64,000 nt of DNA from Amoebophrya sp. A120 (GCA_905178155.1 CAJINV010000004.1:9355360-9419359), one strand, 5' to 3'; positions 6,201-61,993 are shown, numbered from the stretch's first letter. Program-made: numbers and translations. The notes: generated by a model from the letters alone, not told the origin.

Positions 6201-9200
6201 AATGTCATCGGCGCTAGCATTATGAAATGCAAAAGCATCGTACTAGTATAAATCGCATAACAAATTTCCTCAGCATGGGAAAGAAGATTTGTAATGCGGA
6301 TTTTACCTGAGAAAGAAATTTGTAATGCATGAATGCGATTAGTACGAGTACGATAGTTTTGCACAGGATAAGCATTTTCTACCCACCAAGAAGGAACAAG
6401 CAACATGAGATATCCTGAGTAAAAACGTACCCACACCAGAGTTGTAATGCAAATCTGCATGCTGAAAATGTTTCTCATGCGGAGCTCCATGAGAAGCATT
6501 TTCTAGTCGTGTTTTGCAATTTGTCATGCTCCAATCAGCATGGTCTGCTAGATCTGTGATGCTGCTGAGCTAGCTCAAACAGCACTACACTACGAATCCA
6601 AATTTGTCATGCAAAACGGCCAAAACTTGTGGATTTGTCTAGCCGATTCCCCATCTTGACTCTGGTGTGGGTACGTTTTTACTCAGGACATGAGAAGTTT
6701 GTGAGAAAGGATGAGCAATACCAACACGAAGAATCCGAACATTGGAGGGGACAGTTGCGCAATTCTCAAAATTCGAGCAAGCTTTTTTCTTCCGCGAAAA
6801 TGTTTTCCTCTTCCTCTCCGAAACCTTCCAGAGCGAATATCCTGTGCAAAAGTATCGTACTCGTAGTAATCGCAGTCATGCATTACAGATCTCCCTCTTA
6901 ATCTAAATCCGCATTACGAAATCCATTTTTCATGCTGATGGAATTTGTCATGCGATTTATACTAGTACGATGCTTTTGCATTGCATAGCGAAAACTGATA
7001 GCCAAGTCGAAGTGGTGCGGGGTTCGAGTTTGCGGCGCGATGAACAAGAAGAACGGCAAGGAGATGAAGGAGCCCGGCGATCTGCAACGGCTGCTGCAGC
7101 TGCTGCGAAGAAGCAGGTGAGTATCACCAGCAGTGAAAGACAAAGAAGGCTGATTAAAACCTCTGCTAACGAGGACATCACCGTCGACATTCCGCCACCG
7201 GAGGGCTGGGAGAAGATGCGAATGACAGTGTCTCCGCCAAGGGCTTTGCAAGTGAGCAGTGACACCAGCGAACGGGTGGAAATTGCCGGAGCAGCAGCTG
7301 CGCCGAAAAGCTCGTCGCAGCCAGTCGCTACACCCAAAGACTTCGGTCTAGAAGAGTCTTACCTTTCAGAAGACGGTTTCGGTTCGAATCTGACGCCGGA
7401 GGAAAAGAAAGAGAAACGGTTACTCGCCTCCGCCAAGCGTCACCTGCAGCGAAAGAAAACGCAGGACCCCGAGCGGTTCGGCGAGGTAGATATTCGGGAT
7501 GGCCCGAACGACAATTTTCCCGTGATCAAGCCCGCCCGGCCGCAGAGCGACAAGATCAAAGAGTTGCTTAGCAAGTTTGAAGCCAGCCCGGAAGGAGAGC
7601 AGTACGATATGAATGCCAGTCTTCGTGGCGACAGTCTTGGGAGCAGTCCTTCTGCAGTTCTAGCAGAGAAGCTACGCTCTTCTATGGGTGGTGGTGACAA
7701 AGACAAAGACAGCGCTGGCAGAGGGAAATCTCCTTCTTCGTTTCACAACTCAGTGCACAGGAAGTCCATTGAGGAGGTGATGGCGAAAACGGCGAAGCTG
7801 TCGCAGGACAGAGCGGCATCGCGGTCCTTATCACCCACACCGATTCTCGGACAGCATCACGCGTCTCAGGAAAAATGGCGAAGGTCAATCGACAGCGGCA
7901 AATGGAGGTCGCAGTCGTCGCAACAACAAAGTAGTTTTGGAGCACCAGGCTCTTTTGGGCAGTACAACTATCCTCGTAGTGTTGCGAGCGGTACAGGCTC
8001 AGAGGCGTACAAAAATAGTAGTCTCGATTTCCGCGGCAGCGGATCAGTACAAAGATCAAACAAAAGCAGCGGCAATTTCGAGGGCAGTAGGGCGGCGGAT
8101 TCCACAAGCAGTCTCGCAAAGCTTCCTGTCACGGATGCGGGGCACTACGTCAAGGAAGAGGCGGATAATTCAGCTGACGGCGTGCCGAAGTGGGTGCAAA
8201 AAGAGCGTGACGAGCACAGCGTCTTGCAGCGGAATCACGAGTCCATCGAGCGCTTGACGAGACAGAGCAGCAGAGAGCCCCGGGACAGTAGTACTACTAC
8301 GCCAGGGCTGCAAGGACAGAAACAGTCTCCAGCAGCGGAGGGTCCCGCTGTAGTTGCACAACCTTTGCCACCGGGGCCGGGGCGGTCGACCCCGCCACCC
8401 GTAAGCGGTCTCTCGGATCCGGAGAAGGAACAGTCTCAGTCGTTTGAACAAACAGGGTCGATCTCGATAGGTGGTGGTCCGCGTGCAGAAGGGTCAGCGA
8501 AGGCGTCGTCAGCTTCTTCCCCAGTCGTGCCCGAACAAAGTGGACACGACGATGTTCTTGATGAGGGAGAGAGCAGCGCGGTGTACCTAGAGCCGACGGA
8601 TTCCGATGTGCACCAGGAAGTTGAAACCGGTTCTGCAAAAACATCAGCTGGTGCTGCACCAGCAGGTGCTAGCACTGGCATTGCAAAATCCGCCCCAGAA
8701 GATGCGGCGCCAGCAGCACGGTCAGCCGATCTTGCTAAAACGGAAAGGGCAAAATCTCCGGAGGACGGCCACTACACATTAGATCAGACGGCGTCTTCAT
8801 CCTCCTCTTCGTCCGGCAGCGGGTCTAGCAGTAGTTCTTCGGGGAGCGATTCCGCGTCCAAATCTTCGTCGAATTTGAATAACAGGAAAGCTGGAGATCA
8901 TGAGAACAAACTGTACTATCCGAGCCCGGAGCACAGCTCCTCGGAGCCCACGGTGAGTAAAGTTTCGAGCCGTGTTGATGACACAGCACTTGGTGCACAT
9001 GGAGTCGACGTGAGGGCGGGAGAAAAAAATCCTGAAGCAGCCGCAATCGCCAGTTGTGAAGAAAGAAACGCCGCGCAGATAAAGCAGTCGAGGGACAAGA
9101 ACAATTTTTCGTTTTTCCCTGAAAACCCTCCGGAGGGAGGAGCAACTGATTCCCGACAGCAACGCAGTCCTGGTAAAAATGTTGCTGGTGAAAATGTTAG

Positions 9201-12200
9201 TAACCAGTCCTCTCGGTCACAGTCGTGGTTGAAGCGAGTCTTGAAGGGACCACCTGGAGGTACTAGTGTTAAAAGCCCCCGCGGCGGCCAGCTCCAGCAC
9301 GCACAGCAGGAGGGGGAGGCGATGGAGGTGGTTCCGCGACACCCGAATCCGATCCTGCAGCACCAGTACCACATTCCGCCGTACGCGATGCTCTTTCACG
9401 GCAAGATGCAAATGGCACGGCGTCAGGCGAAAAGGGAACAAGTCAAGTCACCCCTTTTGGTGGACACCACGAAGAATCTGGATGAAATGCATGAAAAAGC
9501 GACTGGAATGAAAATTCAAGAAACTTCTACCAGAGACGAGGACCAATCTCCCGGTTGGCGACAGCGGTTGGCAAATAAGTTCGATGGTAGGAAGCCGACT
9601 GAAGCAGACGCTGCTCGTCGCGCAGATCCAAATCACAAATACAGCATGACTGTTGCTAATCGGGAATTTGTTTTCGGAAAGGACGGGCACGGATTTAAGC
9701 CGAAGTCCCAAGACTCCGAGGGAGGTTCGGCAGGAGAAAGAAGAACACGGATCCCGCGGTCGCGCGTAGACCCGGAGGGGTTGAAGTCGCAGATAACCGA
9801 CGCAAGCAACAAAGCCAGCCGCTTGGAGGAAGAAGCAGAGGCAGACCCGATCGAGATCGAGCGCAGCGAGGAAGAAGCGGAAGGAGAAGACGAGGGTCAG
9901 AATGTGAAGTGGCAAAAAGACCGCAAGTCCGGGAAGTGGATACCCGCACTATCAAATGTAAAAATGTCTGGGTCTGGAAGATTGCAACTTGTCGCGCTGT
10001 TTTTGGATTCCACAAAAATTAGTATTGCATGACCAGCAAGTAGAGGGGTGCTCTGTGTGCTACACGGACAGGGCATTTCTCATGCGAAAGGTGCATTAGG
10101 AAGCCCTCTAAAAATATGCGATGCTAGGTCATGCATTAGAGGCATCATGGGTCATGAGAAATATGCATGACAAATCTTGCATTCTTCCAGACCCAGACAT
10201 TTTTGCATTTGATGCGCATTACCAGGTGACATCTTCCCGCAGGAAGACCTGGATTCCAACACGTTCGCAGACGGCTCGCAGCGCGAATTTCGAGGCTTCT
10301 CGCTGGGTTCCACCTCGCGGAACTCGAAGGAGGGAGTTGTTGTCACGTTGGCCAAGTCCGGCCCCGTGGGAAGTGTACATTTAGTGACGTCGGATACTAG
10401 TTTAGACCCAAGGAGGGACAGCCAGGGCGAAGTTGTAGCCGAAGGGACGACCGGAAAAAATGCTTCTTCGTCTCTCCGCGGTAGTGCGGCGGAACAAGCT
10501 GGACTTTTGCAGGACGTGATGCCTCAGAAAAACACCGCGATACGGTTCACGAACCAGTACAGCGAAAACGGTGACGATGGAATTGTAGACGAAGAAGACG
10601 AGGAAAACAATGAAAATTCCGCCCAAACTGCAATCGAGAATCAACTTGTTCCGGACACAAGCGCATTTGAAGATGAGAATCAAGACGACGATACCCCCGC
10701 AAACGCCCCGCGAGGGAGAACCAGCGCACTAGGAGACGAAGTAGTAAAACGCAGTTCCCGCTGGAAGGAAGCGAGCACAAAAAGACCCACAATTCCGGAC
10801 CCCGCGGCGGATGAGCTTCGTCGTGGCAGTGCCGCGGATAAAGATCGCCCTCCTGGTGCGCCAACGGGCGGTGACCGATTGAGCAACAGCAGGAAGTCTT
10901 CCGTTTCTGAGACGCGCAACTCAATGCGCCGGGAAGAGATCAAGCAGGGCATCCAGAACGTGCTCCGCGCCAGCTCGAAGGGGGGCGACGCGAAAGCGTT
11001 GTTTCGGGATTTGCGATCCAGCTACATCTACAAGGGCGGTAACGATGTCGAGGAAAAGGTGATGAATTCGGAATACGAGTTTCAGCCAGAAGACGAAGCG
11101 AGCCAACAGAGCGGAGGTGCATCAAGTAACGGTCTACTTGAGAACCGTACAACTATGCAACCCGCCAGTGGAAAAAGCAAAGTGAAGTCGAAAGGTCTGT
11201 CTCCTGAATCTTCTTCCGCGCAGGAGTTCGCTTCTCACCCGCCGGTCGTGATCCGTGCGACCCGAGCGTCTTCTCTTCGCGACAACTTCCTCTCCTCCGA
11301 ACTCGAAACCAGACCGGACAGCGTGAAAACTTCCCTTCACGAAGAACATTTCCACTGGTTCGTGGGGAATCAGGAACGGAAAAAACAAAAGTCGCCCTAC
11401 GCGTATCATTATGCATTGCAAAAGTATCGTACTAGTGGTAGTATGAATTGCGTCACAAATTCTACATCTACTCTCAAGTACAAAAGTGCATTACAATTTG
11501 TCATGCTACTTCGGGTAGAAAGTTGGGCTTGGGTTTGTAATGTATGACTGCAATCATTACGTACAAGTATGGTATTTTTGCAGTGCATCTCCACCCCCAG
11601 ACGAAGAAGATGCACCAGTACGACGAGTTTTACCGGCATTATTCACAGAAAAAAACCCATCCACATCCAATTTGTCATGCAAAACCCGTATCAAATCATG
11701 TGTTTGTCATGCAAAAAACGGATGTGGATGAGTTTTTTTCTGTGCATACTCATAGTGGCGGTCACATCCTCCACCAGGAAGCGGGGTATTATTACCACAA
11801 GAACGTGGGCGATTCTGGGGTGCTTTTTTCCCCTCGGCGCGGGAGGTCGCCACCGCTATCAAATGTAGAAATGTCTGGGTCTGGAAACTTGTGATGCTGG
11901 GTGGCGTCTCATGATGAGGCCACAAATGCTGGCTCAACATGACAAGTTTCTGAGCTTCTAGGTGTTGCCTATTCTGCATGGCAAACTGCGTTTCTGCATC
12001 ACAGAAAAATGGAGTTCTTGGGTAACGTGCATGACAGGTTTGAGAGTCATGCCAGACAAGCATGACAAACATGCATTCTTCCACCAGACCCAGACATTTT
12101 TGCATTTGATAACCGCCGAAAAGCGACAACTCGGTTCTGAGTAAGGACAACTGGTCTCGGGCGCACGAAACCTTCTACGACGGGGGAAAGGAGCATCAGA

Positions 12201-14104
12201 ACCAACCCTGGAACAAAAGCACGAACGTGTACGGGTCGCTGCACAAGTTTTCCCGGGGGAAAAACAGTCCAAAGACTTTCGCACCGGACTACGTTGTGGC
12301 GAAAGTGGAAAAGAATCTGGAAGAGGAACGGGAGACGGCTATGTTGAGGGAGCAAATGAAGAGCATGATGCTGAAATCTACTTCGGGTAAGGATGATATA
12401 AACGAAGCCGGCTTTCTCGGTAGGGATTCTGCTGCGAAAAGTACAACAGAAGGTGCACTGGGGAGTGTCGGAAATGATGTTCAACATAATGCTGACGGCA
12501 ATGTTGAATTTGAAAAACAGAGGACGGCAAAAGGAACAAAAGGGAACGCAGCCACAACGAAAGCCGTCAACATCAAAGCTCCTTCAAACAAGACTCCGAT
12601 CATATCCCCTTTGAACGACAAAAACTTTACCTTCATCCCGCCGCAACGAACTGAAAAAGACAACCCAGTGCTGGAAAACCCGCCGAGGCTAACGAAACGG
12701 AACGTGAAAACGGGTATTGGCTTCACCGGCGGTATATGGATCGCAAAAATGTCTGGGTCTGGAAGGATGCGAACGCGTGATGCGCATTTCGCAACACGGA
12801 CAGATCTCTCATGCATAGGCAGCAAAAGGTGCCCACTTCCTGTCACCAGAATGGGGGATTTGTCATGCGGATTAAGCAATGCAGAAGCTTCTCGAAATCT
12901 GTGATGCTAGGGCTTCCATGACAGACATTTGGTGTCATGCAAAAACAGCATGACAAAAATCTGCATTCTTCCAGACCCAGACATTTTTACATTTGATACG
13001 GTATCGATATTCACCATTCGCCCGCTTCCAGCAAACGAACCGCGTCACCCCCGGACAAGGAAAAAGTCGTCAGCGCGTCGCCGCCGCACACGTTTTCCGG
13101 GCTTCCGGTGCTGAGGGCAAAGAAGAAAAAGCCGCAGCTGCAGGCACGAAGCAGTATGAAATTTCAGGACTTTGACCACAATTTGCGGAAGCAGGTGAGT
13201 ACCCCTTTGACCGATGAGAAGTTAAGACGGATTGCTGCCTCTTTACCGACGACTCCAATCAACAAACCGAAACTGAAACGCGGCAAGAGCCCTGCTCGCC
13301 CTGTCGCCGTGCAGACCGACTACTCCATGTCGCCGCGGTCCGTGATGATGCGCACGCAGTGGGAGAATTTGGGCGGCATGGACCTGCCCCCGGAGAAAGT
13401 GCTCCCGTTTGATAGAACCGCGTCCATGTTTATCGGCGCAAGGATGATGGAAGCGATGAAACATTACAACGCTGGTGGAGAAGATGGCTCAAGTAGACCG
13501 ACAGAAATCTACACGTCCCAGAGGTTTCTGAAAGGCGCGGCGGGGCCGTCGCCAACGCACATCGCACCGGCGGCCTTCGGGAGGATGAGTCAGAAGCCGC
13601 TGGAGGGGAGGAAGATTATTGAGAGGAGCGAAAATGACGAAGTAGAGAAGGTGCAGGAGTTGGCGAGGATTACGATGCTGGAAAAGGCTCTGCTAGAGAA
13701 GGGGGAGAAGGATAGAGAAGCCGCAAGACTGACCAGCCCATTGTCGTCGGGGCTGCAGCAGCAGCCGACCTCGTTCGCCGACCAAGTCCGCAAGGATAAA
13801 AACGCTGGAGGAGAGCTGCAGGAAAACGAGAAGGCAAAAAAGCCGCCGAAAATCAAGACGGTCTTAGCCCCTTCACATGGCAGAACCTCTGGGGTTAGCG
13901 CGCTGGACGATTTCCTCTCCGACACGAGCGAACGGAGTTTCGGGAAGAAAAGGACCCCCAGGAAGAAACACGTGAAAGCGCCGGCGCACGGCCGGCCGAC
14001 CGGCGTAGACCCCTTTGCGGTATTGGCGGGGGTACCCTCGTCCGGTGGGGGTGGGGAGGGGGAGGCGGCAGAGCATGAGGCCAACCCGTCTCCTGGGCGG
14101 CAAG
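294..14104 (+). CDS. Giant (>3,800 aa in window) charged, low-complexity and coiled-coil protein of unknown function; 5'-partial; may end in exon 15838-16509
   Basis: ORFs 202, 3685, 4581, 6629, 6970, 10348, 11544, 12227 and 13108 join in frame after removing one conventional intron and 9 TIR elements each with one DR copy. Exons ~299-3545, 3732-4520, 4787-6220, 6376-6410, 6696-6837, 6993-9949, 10220-11409, 11595-11639, 11754-11856, 12117-12734, 13004-14104. E/K/Q-rich coiled-coil-like segments; no recognisable domain. Confidence 0.8.
3546..3731 (+). other. Conventional spliceosomal intron (GT-AG; in-frame alternative GC-AG 3541-3711)
   Basis: AG|GTAAG at 3546 and CTACAG| at 3731 join the flanking ORFs in frame. 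AT-rich, with an in-frame stop. Confidence 0.7.
4521..4781. mobile_element. Introner, family A (TCTGGGTCTGGAA TIR), DR GCGAA
   Basis: TATGAACTGCAAATATGTCTGGGTCTGGAA...TTCCAGACCCAGACACTTTTGCACTTGATA; GCGAA at 4516-4520 and 4782-4786. Excision gives ..PVA-K-EVVRL.. Confidence 0.93.
6221..6370. mobile_element. Introner, family B (150 bp), DR AGCAT; opposite orientation to 6838 and 59003
   Basis: TATGAAATGCAAAAGCATCGTACTAGTA...TACGAGTACGATAGTTTTGCACAGGATA. Frame restored (..GAS-I-FYPPR..). Confidence 0.92.
6411..6690. mobile_element. Introner, family C, DR TGAGA
   Basis: TATCCTGAGTAAAAACGTACCCACACCAGAGT...ACTCTGGTGTGGGTACGTTTTTACTCAGGACA, a near-perfect 32-bp TIR. Frame restored (..QHE-K-FVRK..). 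Confidence 0.93.
6838..6987. mobile_element. Introner, family B (150 bp), DR GCGAA
   Basis: TATCCTGTGCAAAAGTATCGTACTCGTA...TACTAGTACGATGCTTTTGCATTGCATA. Frame restored (..SRA-K-TDSQ..). Confidence 0.93.
9950..10214. mobile_element. Introner, family A, DR CGCAC/CGCAT
   Basis: TATCAAATGTAAAAATGTCTGGGTCTGGAAG...CTTCCAGACCCAGACATTTTTGCATTTGATG. Removing 270 nt joins ORF 6970 to ORF 10348. Confidence 0.92.
11410..11589. mobile_element. Introner, family B-like (diverged), degenerate DR ATCAT/TCCAC
   Basis: TATGCATTGCAAAAGTATCGTACTAGT...ACAAGTATGGTATTTTTGCAGTGCATC. Removing the element plus 5 nt gives ..YAYH-PQTKKM.. in frame. Confidence 0.8.
11640..11748. mobile_element. Introner, family D (109 bp), DR GGCAT/CTCAT
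   Basis: TATTCACAGAAAAAAACCCATCCACATCC...GGATGTGGATGAGTTTTTTTCTGTGCATA. The 114-nt removal is frame-neutral. Confidence 0.85.
11857..12111. mobile_element. Introner, family A2, DR ACCGC
   Basis: Family A TIRs; interior nearly the same as 31041 and 49594. Frame restored into ORF 12227. Confidence 0.93.
12735..12998. mobile_element. Introner, family A variant, DR CGGTA
   Basis: TATGGATCGCAAAAATGTCTGGGTCTGGAAG...CTTCCAGACCCAGACATTTTTACATTTGATA. Frame restored into ORF 13108. Confidence 0.92.
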
Positions 14105-15601: not shown

Positions 15602-15701
15602 NNNNNNNNNNNNNNNNNNNNNNNNNNNNNNNNNNNNNNNNNNNNNNNNNNNNNNNNNNNNNNNNNNNNNNNNNNNNNNNNNNNNNNNNNNNNNNNNNNN
15701 N
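15602..15701. other. Assembly gap (100 N)
   Basis: Run of 100 N. Confidence 1.
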
Positions 15702-22225: not shown

Positions 22226-22369
22226 AAGCATTCGATGAGTGGGAGAAGTTGCGCCTATCTTATTTATCTCTATGTCATTGTCATTGAGAATTTCTTTGAA
22301 TACTAAGTGAGCGACATTAAAGATTCGGCATTGCCGTTTGTGTGATTTCTGACGTAACTACGTGGCCAA

Positions 22370-44289: not shown

Positions 44290-44294
<5 letters not shown>

Positions 44295-44475
44295 AGAAGA
44301 AGTTCCTGCTGCGTTTGTTCCCCCTGAGCAAAGCGCCTTTTATAAGGCTGACGAACGTTACAGGAGCAGACGAGTCCTTGAGTGTGTTCGCGACCAGAAG
44401 CCGAGACTTCAGGGCACCCGTGAAGAGTTTTGAGAGAGTTTCTTTTTACCGAGCCAAACACACCCCTACCCCGCG

Positions 44476-51471: not shown

Positions 51472-54154
51472 ATGGTGTGTTGCGGTTGGTGTTGCGGTGA
51501 CGACACCGAGCTTCTAGTCGATGCCGATACCCCGGCGAAGGACCAATTGCGCCAGGTCGTCGTAGACCATTCGAAGGCGGCTGTAGTTGCGGTCGACGTC
51601 GACGACAGCACCACGGCATTGGAAAATGTCCCACTGATGGCAGCATCCACAGCTTTTGAGGAAGCAAGCGCAGCACAGGAAAATCTTACCCCCGACGATG
51701 TAGACCCAGGCGGTGTTCTTCCAGCAGCTCCCAAGAAAGAAGATCAAGAGCGCAAGTCAAAACTGATTCCACCCTTGACTTTTTTACCGACGCCCGCCAT
51801 CAAAAGCAGTATTCGGACCAGTGCAGGGTCGTCTGTTGCTGCTCCTAATGCAGCATCTCGAAGATCGTCTACCAACTCCAACACCACAACAGCATCGACC
51901 CAAATAAATCTCCAACCTTCCGGAGATCAGGCGCAGCGCAACAGTGCGGCGGCCCGTCGGCCTTCCGGGTCGAGTTTTCAGTTGAAGCCGCGGATTTCGG
52001 GGTTTAATTTTGTCGGAACTACGCAGAAAAAACCGCTGGGAGGTGAAGCCACCACAAGTACCTCAACGATCATCCCCCGGCCCAGTGAGGACGATGAAGA
52101 TGGTGCAGCTCCTGCTGGTGTTGATCCACGACCTCGAGGAACTACATCCTCAAATGCGGGCAGCAAAAAATCTTCCATAACGAGCTACTCGGAGCGAACT
52201 ACAGGTGGAACAGCTTCGCCACTTAATCTCTCACCCACCGGTGCGAAAAGAACGGTTACGCAAACGAAGTCGCAATTTTCCTTTGGTGAGGAGGGGGTGT
52301 ACGGCGAACTCCGCACGACAACCGATGAGCACCACGACAACAACGATCACGAGCAATTGCACGACGAAGTGCGGGAACAGATCGCGAACATCGATAAGGT
52401 TTTGAAACACGAGGAATCTACGTTGAACAGTCGCGACTTCCGCAGCCTGATTCGGCGCGAGGAGGAGGACCATTTACGCGGCCTGCCCTCGTTCGTCCAC
52501 AAAGCGAAAGCGGGGCTGAAAACCGCGGTGACTGGTCTGTCTGAAGTCGGCGACAGTAGTACAACGACCCGGGATGGTACTAGCTTAACCGACGCATCAT
52601 CAGTCGGAAGGAGGACCGGCGACGGGGAGAAAATGTTTCGCGACGCGGCGGAAGGTGTGAAACTGAAAAGTGAGGAAAGCGTTGTTCCACCCAGGAGTGC
52701 GAGTGCCAATAGCAGTGGTGGACGTTCTGGTCCGTCTCAGCAAACTACTACACAAGCATCTTCTATCCCAAGATTGTCCTCAAGGCCGGAAAGTGAAAGA
52801 GTTCCCTCGATCCCCAGCGCCGAAGATCGCTCGTTTATCAAATTTCCGTCCGCATTGCGGAATGTCAGCGGCGCTTCCGGATCCCGAGCTACGGGTGGTG
52901 TCCCGAGTGCGTTCAAGGACTACAGCTCGGCCGGGGATTCGATACTGCGCTCGGACGACAGTACTATGATCCCCTCCTCGGGAGTAGCTGCACCTGGTGC
53001 ACAGCCGACCAGCAGCGGGATGTCGTCCAATATCAGCAGTTATGCCTCGCAGAACAGTGTTGACTCGCGAATCACAGAACAAGTATCGCAGATGAACAAA
53101 GACAACAAACGGGGTGGAAACATCAATACGAATACGTCGAATAGGCCTAGCTCCTCGGCCGCCAGCATTCTCGACGACTCCCGCGTGACGGAGCAAACGC
53201 AGAACTATCATGCGCAAAATTGATATCTTCGTGCCCGTACTGATTGCACTCGTGCGTGACAGGTGTGTCTTTTTACTAGTCAGCGACATACTCTTGTTCG
53301 TTGATTCTGGAAAACGAAAAGCTTGTGGTGTAATTAGTACAAACTCACACGATATTATTTTTGAACTGCATAAGAACAAGCGAGGCACCACCACCACTGC
53401 GGCTACATTCACGTTCGGCACTACCGTTCTCTCCGCCCCAGGAACTGCAGCTGGACAAAGGGACAAGGAGGGGGGTGCGACGGTAGTACACGGTGTAAAA
53501 CAAGGAGAACTACACCCGGCAGGGCACACGCATACAGCTACCTTCGGGGATAGCGATGTTGAGGCTGCTGCTGAACAACAGCAAAACCGTCAAACCAATA
53601 ACAGTAAGTCGGAGATGAATTACGTGGAAGGCGAGCACCATCGGGAAAGGGATGGCTCAACATCAGGGTTCCAGTGGTCATCCTCCTCCTCATCCGCTTC
53701 GGGGAATGATTCTAGCAACGGGGTGGACGACGACGTGGCAGCTCCCGTGGGCGTCGTGAGGAACAAGGAAGCGTCGAATCGCAGGGCAACTCCTGATTTC
53801 GGTACAACCACGACTGCTTCGCCTGCTCTCATTCCGTCACCGTCGATACCAACCAGAACCATCGTCTCGACCAGCCCGAACAGCCGAAAACCCGGTGCAG
53901 TTGATGCGCAGGAACGACCCAGAAGTAGAGGAATGACAGCCCCGAAAGGTGTTAGCATTCCCAGTAATACCATCACATCTATCTCGCCCCACATGTCCGC
54001 GGCAGCGCGTCTAGCGGCACGGCGGTCGGCGGCTAGAGCGAAAGCGACTGCAGCTTCGGGCACTGGGAGAGGAGGTAATGTTCCTACTTCTTCATCTTCT
54101 ACCGGTGTGGTAGATCATGCTAAGAAGACGTCGGCGGGGGATGATGTTATGTAG
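51472..54154 (+). CDS. Hypothetical Ser/Thr-rich protein (~836 aa), N-terminus MVCCGWCCG
   Basis: Exons 51472-53205 and 53378-54154 join in frame after removal of one introner. Confidence 0.8.
53206..53372. mobile_element. Introner, family I, DR AGAAC
   Basis: TATCATGCGCAAAATTGATATC...GATATTATTTTTGAACTGCATA, with inner IR GTACTGATTGCAC/GTGTAATTAGTAC. Excision gives QTQN-KRGT. Confidence 0.85.
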
Positions 54155-55878
54155 GGAGCGGTCGGAGTGAACCTGAAAACCAGGAGCCTGTTACCTCCAA
54201 AATACACAGCTTCGAAATTGACTTCGTTTTAGGCTTTACAGAAACAATTGACATGAACTAATCACAGCTAACACTAACGTAAACTAATTTTTGGCTTGCT
54301 CCTTATTATACACAGTTTCTTGAAAATACACCTTCTGGTAGAAGTTGGCAGTTACTTGCTACAGAAGTTTGAAATTGAAAAATGCGGACTTGAAACCTTT
54401 CTTGACTGATTTGAAAACCTGTATCTGAAGTTGATATTGACAGCTATTTCGCTTCTCCTGAAAAATTTGCACATCGATCGATCGTCGCCGTGGTTACGAC
54501 CAGCACCAGCAGTCTTGCGGAGATCGAAATTCAAATTGACATCTACGTTTGGCTTTGGACAACTACTACTACATTGAAATCGAAAATTAGTTTTGGATGA
54601 TTGATGAAAAGATATGACACGGTGGAGCCATGGACATGGTCATGGACATCGTGTTGGTCGACTGCGCCTGCCACGTCATACGCAAGTACAACGGGTTTCG
54701 CTCCGGCATTGCTCAGTAAGTCGGCTCTATTTCGTTCTACTTGCTCTATCGTAGACTCGTTTTCGCGCTGCGTCATCGTTATTTCGATATTGTTGAGCTC
54801 TTATTTCGTGGGTAAAGCTTTCGTGTCTTTTCAGCAGCGGAGGGCTGGTCGAGCTCGAGGGTGACAACATAATCGTTCTTCACATTTCGTGAATCGTGGT
54901 CATCTTCACGTAGCGACGCTGGTTTTGTGTAAACGTGCTTGTCATAAACATCATCTCATCAATTTTCCTCTGCAGCAACACGACCACAGGCGTTTGGCCG
55001 ATTTAGTTTTTGATTCTGCTGCTGAAAGAGAAAATCGAAGAAAAAGACTGTAGTGTACGAATAGAAAACCGCAGTCAACTACAGGAACAATGGCCTCCGC
55101 CTTGATGATCTGCGGCGGTGGCGTGCTGACGCTGCTTTTTTTGAAATTCCTGGGCCAGTCAGTGAAGAAAAAGCGGAAAGCGACGGGTTCGAAGTACCAA
55201 GCAGGTGGCGGTGCTGCACGGGGGAAGAAAAAATGAACAGGAGGATATTGCTGTAGTTGCTGGCCGTCGTGAATTTCTCAAACAGAAGATAATTTTTCAA
55301 GAAAGCTAGTTATCGAGCTAGTCGTGTTAACCAGTATCGTCAGTCCGATCTCGAACAGGTAAAGCTCAAAAGTGTGGCTTTGATTTGACCCTTGTTCATC
55401 TCTTGATGACTTCGAGTGTCGTCTTAAAGTAAGATTGTTCTTCGAGTATCGGCGTACCCAGGCCACGACACTACCGAGGCGACGTCATGCATGTATACGA
55501 GTGCGATACTTTTGCAATTCATAGGGCAACAACCGTGGCGAAAAAAGCTTTAGTACAACAACATCGGTGTACTTACTATGGTGAGCTTCGGATTCGGTTA
55601 TATGTACAACTAGTCGGTATCATTTCAGTTGTCGTGCGCGCGGTGCCATCATATTTGACAATCTATGAAAATAAGCTATACCTAAAGCAAATACTAGGCA
55701 AATTAATATAACTCCCAGGCCGCTGCTCCTCGCATGAAGTGTTGCTAATACCAACATTATTTCTTGTTATCTTGAAGAACAACTAACTTACTTTTTCGCT
55801 TCTTCACCTGTACTTGAGTATTTACTTAATTTATCTTTCCATTATAAAGTGCAACTTCTATCGCGTGCTCGCATAATC

Positions 55879-57426
55879 ATGTTGCGCATCACAGGGCTCG
55901 CCGCGCTTCATTTTTTCAACGGCCTCTCAACAACATTTGGGGTCGGGATGAAGTTGTACGGCCAAGGCATTAGCACCTTCAAGGAGCCTACTTTCCTGCA
56001 GCAGGAAGAACAAGAAGCACAAGGTCAGCTACACATGCACCAGCGTCATGAGTTATTTCTTGCTGATCCTTCTACTCCTTCTTGCCCAGACCAAGCACCG
56101 AGAGTGTTCGTGTATGGCTTTCCGGATAAGGAGTTACTAAGTCACGGGACACGTGACATCGTTTGGCGGGAGGATGCGTACTGCGAAAGAGAATTCCCGT
56201 CTGGCTCGGCCGAGGAGCGCGATTGCGTCTTCGGTCCGGAGTTCTCCGTTAGGATCGACTCGCCGCCAGCCAACGTGACGCTCCGTGCCACTGACCAGTT
56301 TCGAAATGGCCGCATCTTCCAATCCCGCCTGGTGCGCTCGGCTTGCAAAGTCACAGATCCCATACGCGCCGATGTGTTTTTCGTGCCCATTTGGCGCGAG
56401 AATTACAAACCGAACCGCATCGAGTGCCCGACGGCAGACGAAGTTTTGGCTGCTCTTCCCTACTTGTCCGACGAAACGGCGAGCAAGCACTTTCTGATGT
56501 CTCCGCGTGTCGGGGGATTGTGGGACGACGTGTGCCCTTTTTGGAATAGCGAGAACCCGCTGCTCCAGAAAATCCGAAAGATGGCCCTGGAAGACACAGC
56601 CTGCGGCAAGTACGGAGGCCCTGGAAGAAACCGCCCGGAGCGTTCTATTCCGTATCCGACCCTTGGTGGCGGTTTGAGCAGTACGCAACTCGCCCACCTG
56701 TTTGCCGTCGCCGATAAAGCGCAGGAAACCGGCCGCGAGTTCCTGGTCATGGCCGCTCTGGGGAAACGCATTGGCATTGCCTCTGCGCGCGTGCGCGACG
56801 TTTGGAATCAACACTGCCACGACAGCGACCATTGTATTGCGGTGGACCCCACGGTGGAGGGCATGCTCCCTGGGTTGGTCCAAGCCATGATGAAGTCCAC
56901 CTTTTGCTTGCAGCCGGAAGGAGACACTCCGTCTCGCAAGGGGATGCTGGACAGCTTGGCGCTGGGATGCATACCGGTGCTTTCGCACCGGAAACAGCAC
57001 ACGCTGTGGCGGTGGCATCTGGGAGACCACGACTGGGAAGATTTCTCTGTGCTGGCGCCAGATTCCACGCAGGCGGCACACGCAACCACTAGGGGCCATA
57101 CATCCCCGGGGGAAAACCACCCAGCCGGCGAGGACGGGGGGCAAGAGCAAGACCAAGCAACTGTCGGCGAGGCAACATCCCAACGTTCGTGGTGCTGTGG
57201 CGATGGCGAGAAGAAATCCCCTCCAGCAGTGGCGCAGACGCTGATGGAAACTGGATCCGGCGTTAACAATATCGTAGAGTTCCTGAAGACCATCAACGCG
57301 ACCACGATCGCCAAACTGCAGGCCGGCGTGCGGAGTGCGCGGACGAAAATCATCACGCACTGGACCGACACCGACTTGAACGACGCAATTACGGTCACGC
57401 TGAAAGCCATACAGGATGGCAAATGA
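55879..57426 (+). CDS. Exostosin-family (GT47) glycosyltransferase; intronless
   Basis: PRVFVYGFP, ADVFFVP and MMKSTFCLQPEGDTPSRKGMLDSLALGCIPV (GT47 signature); hydrophobic N-terminus. Confidence 0.9.
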   Translation: MLRITGLAALHFFNGLSTTFGVGMKLYGQGISTFKEPTFLQQEEQEAQGQLHMHQRHELFLADPSTPSCPDQAPRVFVYGFPDKELLSHGTRDIVWREDAYCEREFPSGSAEERDCVFGPEFSVRIDSPPANVTLRATDQFRNGRIFQSRLVRSACKVTDPIRADVFFVPIWRENYKPNRIECPTADEVLAALPYLSDETASKHFLMSPRVGGLWDDVCPFWNSENPLLQKIRKMALEDTACGKYGGPGRNRPERSIPYPTLGGGLSSTQLAHLFAVADKAQETGREFLVMAALGKRIGIASARVRDVWNQHCHDSDHCIAVDPTVEGMLPGLVQAMMKSTFCLQPEGDTPSRKGMLDSLALGCIPVLSHRKQHTLWRWHLGDHDWEDFSVLAPDSTQAAHATTRGHTSPGENHPAGEDGGQEQDQATVGEATSQRSWCCGDGEKKSPPAVAQTLMETGSGVNNIVEFLKTINATTIAKLQAGVRSARTKIITHWTDTDLNDAITVTLKAIQDGK

Positions 57427-57771
57427 AGAGCAGAAAATGTTTTAAATGGCAAATACGGCTCATCAACATCATGATTGCGTTGCTGAGGATCTTAAGGCGT
57501 TGGATATCTATCACTGTCATCTGTTGGTTTTATTATTATTGACGCATTTTAATTTTTTTTTTCTCTTCTGTTGAGCACTTGCGCCTTCGATCCGAATTTT
57601 TTGCACACCATCTTCGGAGCAACTCCCGCCGCATCTAGATAGGCGCTAGCGCGCGAAGTTTTGCAAAAAGTGGGTCGCGCTGTCTCCGGGGGGCGTGCCC
57701 TGGTCTCACTATAATAAACTTAGCAGGGAAAGGATCCAATGCGCCGCATTCAAAAGGTTGGGACGAGCTTT

Positions 57772-57855
57772 GCCTTGCTTAGCTCGCCAAGGCGTAACGC
57801 TTGACCTGTGGAACTTCATTCAACGAGCGGAGTGGTTCGAGCCCACTCAAGCGTG
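57772..57855 (+). ncRNA. tRNA-like / Pol III element (possible tRNA-derived SINE head); not a canonical tRNA
   Basis: A-box-like TAGCTCGCCAAGG (57780); B-box GGTTCGAGCCC in the T-arm AGTGG-TTCGAGC-CCACT; 7-bp stem ACGCTTG/CAAGCGT; no clean anticodon arm. Confidence 0.45.
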
Positions 57856-58545
57856 ATTACTGCGCAATCAGTATGGGTCGGAGGTCAGAGCGTTAGTATT
57901 GCGAGCCTTAAGCGTGATCGCGTGGCCGATCCTTGACCTCCAGGCCAAAGAATAGGACAAACAAGTCCCGGCTCCTGTGTGCGTGCTGGTAGTTCCGCCC
58001 TGTTCCTCGGAATGTGCGAAACATGCCAGCCCCCGAATGAAGCAAGGCCCAATGATCCCGAGCGAGGGCTTTCCACACTTGAATGACGAAAAAACCTGGC
58101 CTCAGTCAACGACGTTACCACTAGGGTATCAGGGCAGGCTATTCCTGCCGCGCGTTGGAGGAGGGAGCTGTCCCGAGCCCCGCTCGAACTAATGCTAATC
58201 ATCATTGTTCTTTTGTTCGGTGATTTTTCATCTTCTGGAAAACCAACAAAGCGATTGAGATTCGATGACGACGAGAGCAGGCTTGATGTAGAGTGTGGTC
58301 TTGTGAATGTTGTTGCACGTGAACCTTCGGAGAACTTGGATTTTTGGTTTTCGTCGTGGTCCTTGTCGTGCAGAGATAGCAGAGCTGCATCCTTGTACTA
58401 GTTGAAGTTGTCACGGTTTGATTCACTCACGACTGAGAGAAGCCAGCACTCAAGTAGTGTCGATGCTCCTCTGCTAGGACCAGGACGGCGAGAAGTGATG
58501 TCTGAGTAAGATATTAATCAGACGAATCATCGCCCTTTCTTCAAG

Positions 58546-61500
58546 ATGCCACCACTCAGCTGCTGCCACGACCGAGGGCCGGACTTATCCGAGACCACCT
58601 TCAGGAGCACAGCTCCGTGTAATTCGTCATCTTCGCCCAGCTCTACTAGTTCGTCGAGCAGTGCGAAAGCAAGATATCGACATGGAGAAATGAGGTTTCG
58701 AGCAAGAAGAACCCCCGCCGTTTTAGGTGCAGCAGCCTGTTGGACAACCGCACTCCTTCCCAACATCCAGGAAATCTTGTTTCAGGCAAATTTGAATTTC
58801 CACCAAAATCTTGTCGCCGCAAAGCAGCACAGGAGCACAAGGAAGAGCAGCGAGCACCACCAACAGGGACGAGAAAAGCAAGAGTCTCTCCTCGATGCTG
58901 CGTTAAGCTCCGTGAAGAAGAGCGCAGAAGACCTTCTCCACTGGCGCGGCGAGGGACAAAACTTTCGAGTACACAAAAAAATGATCGTCAAAGTGAAGAA
59001 GCTATCCTGTGCAAAAGTATCGTACTCGTAGTAATTGCAATCATGCATGACAAATTGCCCATCTTAGGCAAATCAGCATTACAAATTGCACTTTTCTCTT
59101 TGAAAAAATTTGTAATGCAATCTATACTAGTACGATACTTTTGTAATGCATAGAAGCGGAAGAGGAGCAAAAAACGGAGTGGTGCAAGAACCGCCGCGGC
59201 TGGTCGAAAATCATCATCCTCTTCCACCTCTGCCGGCAGAGTCTACTCGTCCACCTCGAGTAGTAGTAGAAGTGGCCGATTGCAAGATGGGCATCGTCAA
59301 GATGAACGCCAGCAGCTTCGAAAGATGAACAAGAAACAGAGAAGGAAAGCCGCGAAAGGAGCTGCTGCAGCAGCAGCAGCAACAGCTGCTGCACAGATGA
59401 GAGGTCTTCAGAAGAAGACCTTGAGAAGCGAAAAACTACTAGTACGCGAAGACGAGAAAGATGGTAGTGGGAGTGAAGAGGAGATTCCGGATGAAGAAGT
59501 AGACAAAATGATGAACGAGAATAGCGAAACATTGCATCCGGACGAGCCCGTGGGGCTGGACGCCACGACAAGCACAACGAGCACTTCCACGACAAGCACA
59601 AGCACGACTTCTACTACGACGACGAAAGCCGGAACGTCTACAGGAAGTTTTTCTGGCGCGTCAATCCGGATGCCGGGCCCTGCCCCTGCGCCAGCTCCGA
59701 CCTCCTCGTCTTTGGTGCAGCACGATTGGGACGATGGGGACAACTCGACCGAAGCACCGCAAAGGACCACTGCAGGAGCAGTACAAATACAAGACGCGGA
59801 TGACACAAACTCGACAACGATGTCGCCCCCAAAGGATGCTGCTGGACAACATCAAGGAAGCTCCTCGTCAGCCTACCTCACAACCGCACAAAATAACGTC
59901 TTCCACAACCTGACCAACCGGAGCAGCGAGCAGATTGGCGAGTCCATCAGCACAACATCAAGTTCTACTACTTCCACAACCGCTGCGACAACGACGACAT
60001 TAGCTGGCGGCGATTTTTACACGCCTGAGGCGATGGTGCTGGCAAGGAATAATAAGGCGGGTGACGATGAAGACGATGAAATAAATCGGACACAATCCTA
60101 CCTGCAGAAGCAAGACGTGGTGATTCGCCGGAGGATTCCGGTGAGTCAATACGGGCAGAACAACCTCCAAGGGGCTCCTGTGGCGGGTGGACAGCAAGTG
60201 CTGCAAGCAGGTGCAGGGCCAAGCTATCCGCAGCCGGCGCTAGTAGTGCAAGGAGGTAATGGCTACGCTGCGCAGCCACCGCCGGCGCTATACGAAGATC
60301 CGCAGTTTCTCGCAACGGCCTCAGACGGGCAGCAGTTGGTGCAGTCGAACCTCCTCCAGGGAACAGTGAATGGCATGGTCAAAAATGATGTTGTCCCGCA
60401 GCAAAATAATCAAGTCCCGCAAGAACAGCAGCAGCTACAATCCCGTCAGCGTGTTTTCGCCACGGTGAGTACTACCGGAACGCCAAATGGACCGCAGATT
60501 CAAGTCCCGCAAATGTACAACAACCCAACGACAACTAAGCAGTTTGCAATCAACCAAGACGGATTGGAAGATGAGGAACAGCTTGACGACTGGCCAGCAA
60601 CTACGAACAGCTACGAAGAGGATGGGGAGTACGAGGACAGCTACGATAGCGGGGAGGACGATTACGATTCCGGTGAAGACGCAGCTTATCTAGAAGAGCA
60701 AGGCGATGACAGCGACGAAGACGATAGCACGAATAGTACCACGACGGGGTTTGTCGACACGAACACGTTTCGGGAAGAATGTACTTGTGTTTTTCTCGAC
60801 TTTTTTCGGAAGTGAAAAATGGCCATGGCGATTAAGAAGTTGTACGGAACTTCCGGTATCGCTTTTCGAAGCGGCCTCACCGAGATGAGAAATAAAAAAT
60901 CGTGCATGATGCGCATGCCATATTACCCATTCTTGATTTGGAATCACAACATACAACAGGTGATGCCGCGACACTGGTGGCCGCCTGGAAAGCTTGTGGG
61001 ATCAAGGACAGTTCGCTGAAAGATTACAAAGCGGGCGAAAACACCAGCGATTTGGTGTGGGAAGTGAAACAAAGTACTGCTACTGTGTTGAAAAAGTCTG
61101 CTCAGATGATTTGCGATTCTGCCAAACCATTTTGACGTGCTCGGAGTCCATTGTGATGCCAAGCACACTTTCCTTCTGCAGCCCTAATATTTCTGAATCC
61201 AAAAGAAAAAACACATTCTTATCAAATACAGCCCACCTCTGCAACACCATCTGCATGTTGGCCTCCGAGATCTGCGCAGACCTCACCGGCCTAGCCGTAT
61301 CAAATGTAAAAATGTCTGGGTCTGGAAGAATGCAACTTGTGATGCTCATGCTGCATTTGGATGTCTAAAACTAAAAAATTTGTGTTGCATGAGCAGCAAA
61401 AGGAATCTAATTTCTGCTACGCGGAGAGGGCATTTGTCATGCAGAATAGGCATCAAGAACCCCTCAAAAAACCTGTGATGCTAGGTCATGCATCACAGAG

Positions 61501-61993
61501 ACCACGGCTCATGCAAATCGTGCATCACAAGTCTCAGAACCTTCCAGACCCAGACATTTTTACACTTGAGAAGCCGCCCGGCGGTACGACGAAGTTACCT
61601 GCTCGCGTTACTGGAACCGGGTGTCGGAGGAATCCATAGTGGTCACGGAAACCAACGACTATCGAATAAAAGAGTGTTAACTTTAACGGTTTTCACAGAT
61701 GGCAGTCATGCATTACAAATTTTGCCTTCCGTGCATGGTACGCAATACAAATTTGCGCGCCTCTTCAGATGCATCCCTGCATCACAAATTCCGTTAACGT
61801 TAGCACTTTTTCTTGTGATAGCGACGCGTCGTCCAAAGCCATGTTCTTCGGGTGGAGACTGCAGCTGCTGTTCACCTTTGTGTTCCTGCTGTTTTCGGTC
61901 AGCGGCTTCGGGGATCATGATCATGGAGGGTTCCTCGGTACTACAGCAGCCTCGTCGGTCGGAAGGAGCAGGCAAGTGCAGGGGGTGTGGTGA
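58546..61993 (+). CDS. Putative secreted/membrane mucin-like protein with a Cys-containing C-terminal domain and hydrophobic tail (~836 aa; start may be 58690)
   Basis: Exons 58546-59002, 59158-60780, 60960-61073, 61232-61297, 61577-61659, 61826-61993 are in frame (3 introners; GT-AG introns 60781-60959 and 61074-61231). Thr/Ser runs; tail LQLLFTFVFLLFSV. Confidence 0.75.
59003..59152. mobile_element. Introner, family B (150 bp), DR GAAGC
   Basis: TATCCTGTGCAAAAGTATCGTACTCGTAGTAAT...TATACTAGTACGATACTTTTGTAATGCATA. Frame restored. Confidence 0.93.
61298..61571. mobile_element. Introner, family A, DR AGCCG
   Basis: Family A TIRs (right end ...TTGAGA). Excision gives TGLA-A-RRYDEV. Confidence 0.92.
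61660..61820. mobile_element. Introner, family J, DR ACGAC/GCGAC
   Basis: TATCGAATAAAAGAGTGTTAACTTTAACGG...CCGTTAACGTTAGCACTTTTTCTTGTGATA. Excision gives ETND-ASSKAM. Confidence 0.88.

Follow-up and report, generated by a model that had tools for sequence, protein, structure and literature searches.

Amoebophrya carries tens of thousands of non-canonical introns, and the literature leaves two questions about them open: what mobilizes them, no transposase having been found in strain A120, and what takes them out of RNA without a splice-site consensus or U1. In the 64,000-nt stretch of A120 DNA analyzed here (the window), families of such elements share a short internal motif, which a first-pass annotation had read as the binding site of one trans-acting factor, either a shared transposase or a splicing-recruitment protein. 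We asked which kind of reader, if any, the motif points to.

Elements of the window and their removal from RNA

The window holds 23 structurally defined elements and two degenerate F-type copies (Table 1). The elements fall into ten groups (A, B, C, D, E/E2, F, G, H, I, and J). All 23 carry TIRs, their predicted hairpins are strong, and their 5-bp TSDs are perfect in 16 cases and agree at four or five positions in 21. A duplication length fixed at 5 bp suggests that the DNA is cut in a staggered manner. The elements thus display the hallmarks of MITEs, namely TIRs, a TSD of fixed length, multiple copies, no coding capacity, and lengths of 109–321 bp. Copies of one family are only ~70–90% identical, and recent mobility is therefore not supported.

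Table 1. Elements of the window, with TSDs (left/right copy where they differ), RNA joints, and motif copies (strand in brackets).
Element	Position	Length (bp)	TSD	RNA joint (nt skipped)	Motif copies	Remarks
Introner element A2	4521–4781	261	GCGAA, perfect	4515>4782 (266)	3 core	TAT...ATA; TIR
Introner element F	6221–6370	150	AGCAT	6215>6371 (155)	6255(-), 6288(+), 6319(+); spacings 33 and 31 bp
Introner element D	6411–6690	280	TGAGA	6402>6688 (285 = 280 + 5)	four, all +	right end ACA, not ATA
Introner element F	6838–6987	150	GCGAA	6831>6987 (155)		inverted relative to 6221–6370
Introner element A2	9950–10214	265	CGCAC/CGCAT	9944>10215 (270)	strict 10165(-)	right end ATG
Introner element, diverged F	11410–11589	180	decayed	11406>11592 (185)	11497(+)
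Introner element E	11640–11748	109	GGCAT/CTCAT	11636>11751 (114)	11671(+), 11703(+), 32 bp apart; none on - strand
Introner element A1	11857–12111	255	ACCGC	11851>12112 (260)	4 core
Introner element A2	12735–12998	264	CGGTA	12729>12999 (269)	4 core
Element C	20428–20662	235	CCGTC		20612(-), inward, 41 nt from right end	terminus without A-run
Element B	20704–21010	307	CGGTA		4 strict; spacings 104, 32, 32 bp	terminus without A-run
Element B	30670–30975	306	AGACT/AGACC		3 core, all +	interrupts long ORF of PIKK-like gene
Element A1	31041–31296	256	CCTTG/TCTTG		6 core
Element B	33463–33776	314	TGCGG		5 core
Element E2 (weakly related to E)	37556–37699	144	CAAGA		one strict, 37589(+), 33 nt from left end
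Element I	40496–40816	321	CGCGC		40632(+), 40766(-)	TAT-N7-AAAA at both ends
Introner element A2	40881–41145	265	CGCTG			opposite orientation to other A2 copies
Introner element A1	49594–49845	252	CGGAG	49588>49846 (257 = 252 + 5)	6 core
Element G	50067–50251	185	TGCGT/TGCGG		one strict, 50191(-)
Element J	53206–53372	167	AGAAC, perfect		0 strict, 0 core	TAT-N7-AAAA at both ends; hairpin -51.9 kcal/mol
Element F	59003–59152	150	GAAGC		strict 59045(-), 59076(-), 59109(+), 59140(+); spacings 31, 33, 31 bp
Element A2	61298–61571	274	AGCCG		5 core	right end AGA
Element H	61660–61820	161	ACGAC/GCGAC		strict 61710(-), 61779(-)
Partial F-type element	130–293				strict 169(-), 200(-), 31 bp apart	right TIR kept, left end lost beside tandem repeat
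Degenerate F-like element	21085–21228		no match		strict 21102(-)

One RNA contig of 8,393 nt lacks nine of the elements, each together with exactly one TSD copy, and also lacks the GT..AG intron at 3544–3729. A tenth joint, that of the A1 element at 49594–49845, was obtained from a second RNA run. At all ten junctions, exactly the element and a single TSD copy are missing, so that the sequence is again uninterrupted. The joints cover 10 of the 23 elements; RNA coverage does not extend to 20428–21010, 30670–37699, 53206, and 59003–61820. Contig pieces that start at 50252 suggest that the G element is excised from RNA as well, and another piece begins at 41146, the first base past the A2 element at 40881–41145. 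RNA runs of 2026 with the same species label yielded 5, 34, and 413 aligned reads, all of them partial and over repeat elements; they are unsuited to reading splicing, and these runs probably derive from another strain.

Introners of Micromonas and Aureococcus, reported by Huff and coworkers in 2016, are said to be DNA-transposon-like, to carry TIRs and TSDs, and to multiply inside genes. According to the text of Farhat et al. (2021; BMC Biol 19:1, PMC7789003), these introners have canonical splice motifs, whereas nine of the ten junctions in our window have borders other than GT..AG. Because ten of the window elements are missing from RNA together with one TSD copy at non-GT/AG borders, they are the published introner elements of Amoebophrya sp. 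A120. The same text describes A120 introners as having inverted repeats of 8–20 nt or more at their ends, direct repeats of 3–5 nt across the borders, hairpin folding, non-GT/AG borders, and no internal transposase; the inverted repeats start with TAT, followed by seven variable bases and at least AAA. Inverted repeats, direct repeats, borders, hairpins, and TAT-N7-AAA were all found in the window elements, which are thus the same objects, and the terminus is already in print (PMC7789003). Euglenid nonconventional introns likewise have hairpin-forming inverted ends, non-canonical borders, and TSD-like junction repeats, and a MITE origin has been proposed for them, with the removal mechanism unresolved, in the parts of the review consulted (PMC11282704). 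They belong to another lineage, have another end consensus, and are described there with no shared internal motif.

A motif confined to element sequence

The strict form of the motif, TTTGTNATGC, occurs 39 times on the two strands of the whole window against an expectation of 0.70, a count that none of 100 dinucleotide shuffles reached. Thirty-six of these matches lie inside the 23 defined elements, which make up 5,251 bp or 8.2% of the window, and the other three in the two degenerate F-type copies. None of the 39 lies outside element sequence, that is, in the exons, the intergenic DNA, or the one canonical intron of the window. The 8-mer core, TGTNATGC, is found 75 times: 69 times in the defined elements, three times in the degenerate F-type copies, and three times elsewhere. 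All strict and 72 of the 75 core matches are thus held by under 9% of the window. Of all words in the whole window, GTCATGC and TGTCATGC show the strongest over-representation. The same distribution was seen between 3730 and 12999, where exons and introns are set by the one RNA contig: the nine excised elements, 1,959 of 9,270 bp, contain 13 of 13 strict and 25 of 25 core matches. The first-pass annotation had not noticed the motif in exons or intergenic DNA, and the strict counts agree; its eight example positions (6255, 6288, 11671, 11703, 37589, 40632, 50191, and 61710) are all among the 39 strict matches. Rfam returned no family above the gathering thresholds anywhere in the window.

The enrichment is not confined to a few families. 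We shuffled one representative per family (12 representatives, 300 dinucleotide shuffles each), and in eight of them the core count was never reached. It was reached in 1/300 shuffles for C, 12/300 for E2, and 13/300 for G, while J has no match. The motif is present in nine of the ten groups, which cannot otherwise be aligned with one another, in line with the earlier observation that it occurs in families with different TIR cores. Nor are these families a single diverged one: cross-family BLAST matches span just 19–24 bp, over a motif copy in the pairs inspected, and with the motif masked and the termini trimmed, clear similarity was left only for A1–A2 and E–E2 (comparison with 60 shuffles). 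Some cross-family matches run a few bases past the motif, as between D and E (22 bp, 95%). This might indicate a passive legacy of an ancestral module, or recombination between families, with no present sequence-specific reader; long hairpins also tend to retain matching sequence on both arms. We return to this reading below, once the makeup and spacing of the motif have been described.

The termini are a second shared feature. Among the 42 ends of 21 elements, 38 have TAT, 27 TAT-N7-AAA, and 24 the full TAT-N7-AAAA, which confirms that the latter is common; over the whole window, only 55 of 853 TAT sites are followed by the N7-AAA pattern. Families B and C have TAT-N7-AAA at none of their eight ends and are probably the two deviating families that the first-pass annotation had labeled E and F. 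The counter-example on the side of the motif is family J, which combines the usual ends and TSD with not a single core match, so that the motif, previously called weak in this element, is missing from it.

Makeup, spacing, and orientation of the motif

The motif comprises 13 bases, (A)AATTTGTNATGC, in which two fixed half-sites flank a central base that is free to vary. Weighted by family, the central base is C in 0.47, G in 0.31, A in 0.21, and T in 0.01 of cases, while the nine positions neighboring it are fixed. In family A1, the central base is non-complementary between the two hairpin arms; hairpin pairing thus does not explain the conservation of the motif. An alignment of eight family A copies gave identities of 93% in motif columns, 88% in TIR columns, and 63% in other columns, a contrast that is partly circular because the motif columns were defined by the presence of the motif. 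A GGCA patch that appeared in the unweighted logo as a second conserved box within the ~32-bp unit vanished when families were weighted equally.

Neighboring copies are regularly spaced. Over all elements, 21 of 47 spacings are 31–33 bp, and with one representative per family the figure is 10 of 23; in 20,000 random placements, the maxima were 9 and 7, respectively. This phasing recurs across six families and corresponds to roughly three turns of B-DNA. The distance between the outermost copy and the element end is usually 30–46 nt. At this distance from an end, the copy faces inward in families A, B, C, D, E, E2, and H; in family G, it does so at 51 nt. In family I, an inward copy was read from the sequence ~41 nt from the right end, and in family F, the motif lies 34–42 nt from the end, some copies overlapping an opposite-facing partial copy. 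Near the right end of family D, no inward copy is present.

These properties bear on the passive legacy considered above. The surroundings of the motif have diverged beyond alignment while the motif itself is intact, and a neutral legacy or structural by-product predicts neither this nor a free base amid nine fixed neighbors, the mismatch between the A1 arms, or the 31–33-bp phasing. We therefore regard it as improbable.

A reader could act on DNA or on RNA. The branch-point consensus is yUnAy, and the reverse complement of the motif, GCAUNACAAA, contains UNAC with the free base at the n position; by our estimate, a 3′-proximal inward copy would place a branch-point-like A ~35–50 nt from the 3′ border. 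More generally, the motif might be an RNA-level signal, bound on the pre-mRNA by a protein or small RNA that marks the hairpin for non-GT-AG excision. The exact removal of ten elements with one TSD copy is consistent with this, as is the fact that the motif is the only internal feature common across families. The conserved motif islands of family A are also as expected if genic copies must stay spliceable. Motif islands inside families are as compatible with such a splicing requirement as with a transposase site, and a sample of ~95 copies does not separate mutations that follow insertion from divergence of the source copies. In addition, the text of Farhat et al. treats the mechanism of splicing as open, and it reports no U1 snRNA (PMC7789003).

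If the motif were a splicing signal read on a single strand, every spliced intron should carry it in the same orientation with respect to transcription, and this is not what we found. The strict matches are distributed as 20 on the plus and 19 on the minus strand, while the long ORFs are all on the plus strand. The D element at 6411–6690 and the E element at 11640–11748 carry TGTNATGC on the coding (+) strand only, even when it is shortened to a 7-mer, and both are spliced; family G has the motif in the opposite orientation only. The orientation of whole elements relative to the inferred host strand is unbiased too (5:6 for family A and 5:6 for family F). Moreover, the 3′-proximal copy is not preferentially kept: judged by eye, the subterminal motif remains on the 5′ arm alone in about six elements and on the 3′ arm alone in five. 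Family J, which lies outside the RNA coverage, lacks the motif altogether. On strand grounds, GCAUNACAAA as a required branch point is ruled out, and we consider an RNA-level signal in general unlikely. The missing transcribed-strand bias and the splicing of D and E with a single orientation favor recognition on double-stranded DNA over a single-stranded RNA signal.

The proposal of one shared factor thus fits the confined enrichment, the presence in nine of ten families, the free central base, the end distance, and the phasing; of the two candidates put forward initially, the strand data favor the transposase over the splicing-recruitment protein.

A putative docking site on double-stranded DNA

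We lean, at slightly better than even, toward the view that (A)AATTTGTNATGC is a double-stranded DNA docking site of a putative transposase that moves all TAT...ATA elements with 5-bp TSDs in this genome. The terminal TAT-N7-AAAA would then be the site of cleavage and end recognition, and the transposition complex would be assembled from several protomers that the phased internal copies place on the same face of the DNA, as with the subterminal repeats of Ac/Ds, En/Spm, P, Mu, and Tn7. Any sequence that keeps both signals would be mobilized, and this would account for their presence in families whose interiors are unrelated. For removal from RNA, the elements would depend on their hairpin and ends and not on the motif.

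Subterminal binding repeats are well known from the transposons named above: AAACGG hexamers in Ac/Ds, 12-bp motifs in En/Spm, internal 10-bp sites in P elements, and end arrays in Mu and Tn7. There as here, a short motif is present in multiple copies and both orientations within the first tens to hundreds of bases of the ends, lies apart from the terminal sequence that is cleaved, and persists in non-autonomous derivatives with unrelated interiors. The pattern of several copies near both ends, across families with the same termini and TSD, was found in our window with J as the exception. The window elements differ in their TAT...ATA ends with a 5-bp TSD and in that they also act as introns, and the regular ~32-bp spacing is tighter than the spacing known for those transposons. 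The elements were also compared with two superfamilies. Ginger transposons have a TSD of 4–5 bp, an integrase-like DDE transposase, and TG...CA-type termini; the 5-bp TSD fits, but the termini here are TAT...ATA and none of 122 ORFs yielded an rve-type domain. The hAT superfamily has an 8-bp TSD and YARNG termini, whereas the TSD here is 5 bp and the ends are TATSN.

Several observations weaken the transposase reading: family J lacks the motif, family D lacks an inward copy near its right end, within-family identity is only ~70–90%, conserved motif islands are expected on the splicing reading too, and a transposase domain is absent from all ORFs scanned. The first-pass annotation had seen no transposase in the window, and our Pfam scan found none in 60 ORFs of the window or in 62 ORFs of related loci (122 in total). 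Only one mobile-element protein came up among the window ORFs scanned, namely a LINE-type endonuclease plus reverse transcriptase. By protein, the window matches A120 best, and its exostosin ORF is 87% identical to a protein of this strain. In the text of Farhat et al., putative transposases are reported for strain A25 only and none for A120, and transposase-mediated mobilization was argued against for this reason (PMC7789003). Introners of A25 have other termini (TTA...). For a coding partner, the literature offers a single lead, fam38 of Amoebophrya, whose ORFs resemble Copia/Gypsy proteins in the text of Gozashti (2025; PNAS, PMC12130899). Its copies measure 808–810 bp in the supplementary Dataset, and the text describes it as lacking the termini and TSDs of Ginger. 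Compared by description, fam38 shares with the window elements the genome, the 5-bp TSD, TA...TA termini, and TIRs.

Related loci extend the picture beyond the window. Among the matches listed, 47 loci on JACKZZ01 contigs carry the same element families, and the I element is 76% identical to one related locus (L034:1009–1334). A purely structural search of these 47 loci yielded 74 unique elements, which cluster with 21 window elements into 15 families, all 15 with the core motif. Four families are new; no member of them contains the search pattern, and three of the four still have the strict motif. Our metagenome scan for phased motif pairs returned at least 122 loci, of which 75 among those listed lie off JACKZZ01 contigs. 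These 75 contained no structural element in 128,881 bp, and the 12 that we inspected were unrelated tandem repeats or isolated matches. Among the matches listed, the scan thus gave no evidence for motif arrays in other organisms.

A further reading assigns both tasks to one element-derived protein, which would read the motif on DNA for transposition and recognize the elements in the transcript for excision. Such dual use would explain why RNA removal, at ten of ten junctions, mimics precise transposon excision, and beyond the termini and the motif, no feature is common to every spliced family. Such a protein is, however, hypothetical, and few proteins recognize both double-stranded DNA and structured RNA in a sequence-specific way; the strand arguments against an RNA signal apply here too, unless a duplex form is recognized. 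We give dual use little credence. The more specific version is equally speculative: a protein descended from a transposase would recognize the phased (A)AATTTGTNATGC sites and the TAT...ATA base of the hairpin and excise the whole element with one TSD copy from the pre-mRNA, with no need for GT-AG borders or U1. If it were true, the same cis-signals would drive the spread of the elements and their harmless removal, and a second intron-removal system would have been built from a transposon.

The introner system is known, and the internal motif, which was not found in the papers searched, is a new, testable detail of it. The searchable text of Farhat et al. mentions no cross-family internal motif, end distance, or 31–33-bp phasing; TTTGT, ACAAA, ATGC, and GCAT are absent from its main text, and TTTGT and ATGC from the text of one supplement (PMC7789003). 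Among the matches listed, literature occurrences of the motif 10-mers were apparently unrelated by title and abstract. The motif is useful for being near-universal across families, usually at a set distance from the end, and phased at about three helical turns. Because it is shared, end-positioned, and phased, it can serve as bait for DNA and RNA pull-downs and as a search key for autonomous copies. If it is the site of a transposase, as we favor, many ‘families’ would collapse into one mobilization group, which would change how introner diversity is counted in this genome.

Introner elements, their host genes and their removal from RNA

The window is eukaryotic and carries very long plus-strand ORFs interrupted by short inserts. 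Host genes and one retrotransposon were recognized among the ORFs (see table); the next two protein matches of the exostosin-like ORF are also from Amoebophrya sp. A120. The reading frame of the PIKK-like gene is broken by at least six introner elements, at 30670, 31041, 33463, 37556, 40496 and 40881. Two further features are an unusually G+C-rich segment (22001–24000, 61.8%) and a run of 100 N (15602–15701), probably an assembly gap.

Coding features recognized in the window
Feature	Position	Strand	Evidence
Exostosin-like ORF (exostosin GT47)	55738–57426	+	Pfam match; 87% identity over 92% of the length to an Amoebophrya sp. A120 protein
FkbM-type methyltransferase host gene	17562–19268		Pfam match
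Mitochondrial carrier host gene	21142–22225		Pfam match
Non-LTR retrotransposon ORF	44434–48372	+	Exo_endo_phos endonuclease and RVT_1 reverse transcriptase domains
Giant PIKK-like gene	24523–41693	+	ORFs end in PI3_PI4_kinase and FATC domains

Elements were searched for as TAT...ATA units with identical 5-bp direct repeats and matching inverted ends, and the candidates were refined by eye and with a gapped score. This yielded two degenerate copies and 23 elements of 109–321 bp, the latter together amounting to 5,251 bp or 8.2% of the window. With the same criteria, the reversed window gave nothing down to a score of 10 and one match at score 9, and 128,881 bp of unrelated metagenome DNA gave no element. 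The target duplications were perfect in 16 of 23 elements, and 21 of 23 matched at 4 or 5 positions.

A contig of 8,393 nt from sequencing run X1, which is labelled only 'RNA?' and whose contig is also free of the GT..AG intron 3544–3729, spans positions 3730 to about 13000 and joins the sequence across nine elements. The joints skip 266, 155, 285, 155, 270, 185, 114, 260 and 269 nt. Each of these lengths exceeds the element by exactly 5 nt, and none of the nine skipped segments has GT..AG as its border dinucleotides. A tenth element joint (49588>49846) was found in run X2, and a contig piece begins at 41146, directly after another element. On the evidence of these ten joints, the elements of the window are introns. 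RNA-run contigs also cover the retrotransposon region (44305–48497). Three RNA-seq runs from 2026 under this species label (X7–X9) matched repeat elements only (6004–7337 and 10006–12006), with 5, 34 and 413 reads, each only partly on the window; their source is probably another strain with some element families in common.

The elements match the repeated non-canonical introns of A120 in Farhat et al. 2021 (PMC7789003), the accessible text of which describes such introns with inverted and 3–5-nt direct repeats in A25 and A120. In A120, according to the same text, the inverted repeats begin with TAT, followed by seven less-conserved bases and at least three A. Across 21 of the 58 rows given by Gozashti et al. 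2025 (PMC12130899), most A120 families are classed as 'TIR DNA, Unknown', and fam38 is annotated 'Ginger, 5-bp TSD, TA/TA termini'. Among the element ends of the window, 38 of 42 read TAT, 27 of 42 TAT-N7-AAA and 24 of 42 TAT-N7-AAAA; families B and C have TAT-N7-AAA(A) at none of their eight ends. The TAT-N7-AAAA terminus listed in the first-pass annotation is therefore real but not new, as it is printed in Farhat et al. 2021, and it does not extend to families B and C. Introners of strain A25 end differently, and those of A120 form roughly 2,000 families.

An internal motif shared by unrelated families

By BLAST, family A has 8 copies, F has 4 and B has 3; the other families are C, D, E (to which E2 is weakly related), G, H, I and J. 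Matches between families were 19–24 bp long and lay over a motif copy in the pairs inspected. We also compared the families with the motif masked, 14 nt trimmed from each end and 60 mononucleotide shuffles. Clear similarity was left only between the two subgroups of family A, A1 and A2 (z 18.3), and between E and E2 (z 5.6); the other pairs mostly had z < 3, with four at z 4.0–5.3. Therefore, the families do not align end to end as one diverged family, in agreement with their earlier treatment as unrelated groups. In DNA run X5 (window 4003–13340 and 30400–50399), contig depth summed over family A elements was thousands of times the value of ~45 on unique sequence, which hints at a very high copy number, although the depth figure is not itself a copy number. 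At positions 1–130, a short tandem repeat with units containing GAACTATTC adjoins and truncates an F-type element.

The pattern TTTGTNATGC (strict motif) has 39 matches on both strands of the window versus 0.70 expected; 100 shuffles gave no count near 39. An unbiased word count over the whole window returned GTCATGC and TGTCATGC as the most over-represented 7- and 8-mers, ahead of every family-specific repeat word. All 39 strict matches and 72 of the 75 matches to the core motif TGTNATGC lie inside elements or the two degenerate copies; the three core matches elsewhere stay below the chance estimate of ~8 (seven fixed bases, both strands). In the RNA-defined stretch, all strict (13/13) and core (25/25) matches are inside the nine excised segments, although these make up 21% of it. 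The retrotransposon ORF has no motif match. These counts bear out the shared internal motif proposed from the sequence, and all eight positions quoted for it recur among the strict matches.

The motif is present in nine of the ten families; family J (53206–53372) is without it despite typical ends, duplication and hairpin. The family-weighted 13-base logo reads (A)AATTTGT-N-ATGC, then A or T, with C (0.47), G (0.31), A (0.21) or T (0.01) as the central base, and shows no second conserved box in the 25 bases beyond the motif. At 6875–6893, 61485–61503 and 61705–61723, two copies overlap head to head via ATGCAT and form the composite palindrome GTNATGCATNAC, a hint that the reader of the motif may bind as a dimer.

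The main text of Farhat et al. 2021 (figures apart) contains none of the words TTTGT, ACAAA, ATGC and GCAT, and one of its supplement files has neither TTTGT nor ATGC. A limited search of the literature on Amoebophrya introners and non-canonical introns, judged by titles, abstracts and text passages, found no paper on an internal motif, and the listed full-text matches to its 10-mers were in papers that, from title and abstract, appear unrelated. On this limited search, the motif and its phasing appear to be unreported. The elements and their terminus had been described before; the internal motif that the families share, with its phasing, appears to be a new detail.

Phasing of the motif and further copies on metagenome contigs

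In families A, B, C, D, E, E2 and H, the outermost motif copy faces inward and lies 30–46 nt from an end; in family G it faces inward at 51 nt, and family I also has an inward-facing copy ~41 nt from its right end. In family F the copy is 34–42 nt from the end and faces outward; some members of this family have it overlapping with a partial copy that faces the other way, the pair resembling a degenerate palindrome around ATGCAT. Neighbouring copies are spaced 31–33 bp start to start in 21 of 47 cases, from six families; reducing each family to a single representative leaves 10 of 23. Random placement, repeated 20,000 times, attained neither count (maxima 9 and 7). Of the 21 pairs, 17 share a strand and four are divergent. 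These regularities of end distance and spacing are additions to what the first-pass annotation had listed.

A metagenome scan for two strict motifs 21–23 bases apart returned at least 122 loci. Among the matches listed, 47 loci are on JACKZZ01 contigs and carry the window's families at 77–90% identity; they stem from this organism or a closely related one. Twelve of the other 75 listed loci were inspected and were unrelated tandem repeats or isolated matches. The listed JACKZZ01 loci (96,017 bp) contain 74 unique elements by structural search, which cluster with 21 window elements into 15 families, all with core matches (15/15). Four of these families are new and have no member with the search pattern, and so are free of ascertainment bias; all four have core matches and three have strict ones. 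Motif spacing on these loci was left out of the counts because it is biased by the search pattern.

One locus (L028:400–1608) holds an element of 1,209 bp whose ends are F-type, with a perfect 5-bp TSD and ~1 kb of unrelated internal sequence (longest ORF 157 aa). Instead of being an autonomous copy, this element may have arisen by capture or nested insertion. Outside annotated elements, window positions 57712–58205 are 95% identical over 494 bp to L034:1–494 on a JACKZZ01 contig. The match could reflect a further repeat family, or orthology with a closely related organism.

Candidate readers of the motif

Across the eight aligned copies of family A, the A1 and A2 interiors are barely alignable, with islands kept at the motif copies. 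Column identity is 93% for the motif, 88% for the TIR and 63% for the rest, a partly circular comparison in that motif columns were picked by motif presence. At the free position, A1 has G in the left-arm copy and C in the right-arm copy. The arms would thus mismatch at this base in the hairpin, so pairing does not explain the conservation, which may reflect selection after insertion or selection on source copies.

The motif could be read in single-stranded RNA or in the duplex. Strict matches are balanced between the strands (20 plus, 19 minus), whereas all long ORFs are on the plus strand. Families D and E, both spliced, have only the TGTNATGC orientation on the coding (plus) strand, even as a 7-mer; G has only the opposite one. 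Orientation relative to the inferred host strand is 5:6 in family A (11 of 23 callable) and likewise 5:6 in family F (11 of 34 callable). Given this strand balance, the single-orientation spliced families and the unbiased orientation, a single-stranded RNA reader is not required for splicing, and predicted duplex recognition fits better.

The duplex fit and the constant 5-bp length of the duplication jointly point to subterminal transposase-binding sites. We lean slightly towards regarding the motif copies as such putative sites, on which a putative transposase would dock, and liken the shared phased motif to familiar subterminal binding sites. One weak point of this reading is that Pfam scans of 122 ORFs found no transposase; the accessible text of Farhat et al. 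2021 likewise reports none in A120. The motif-free family J is another weak point, and so is the conservation, which may stem from selection after insertion as well as from selection on source copies. The shared phased motif bears on who moves, and who removes, these introns, and this is directly testable.
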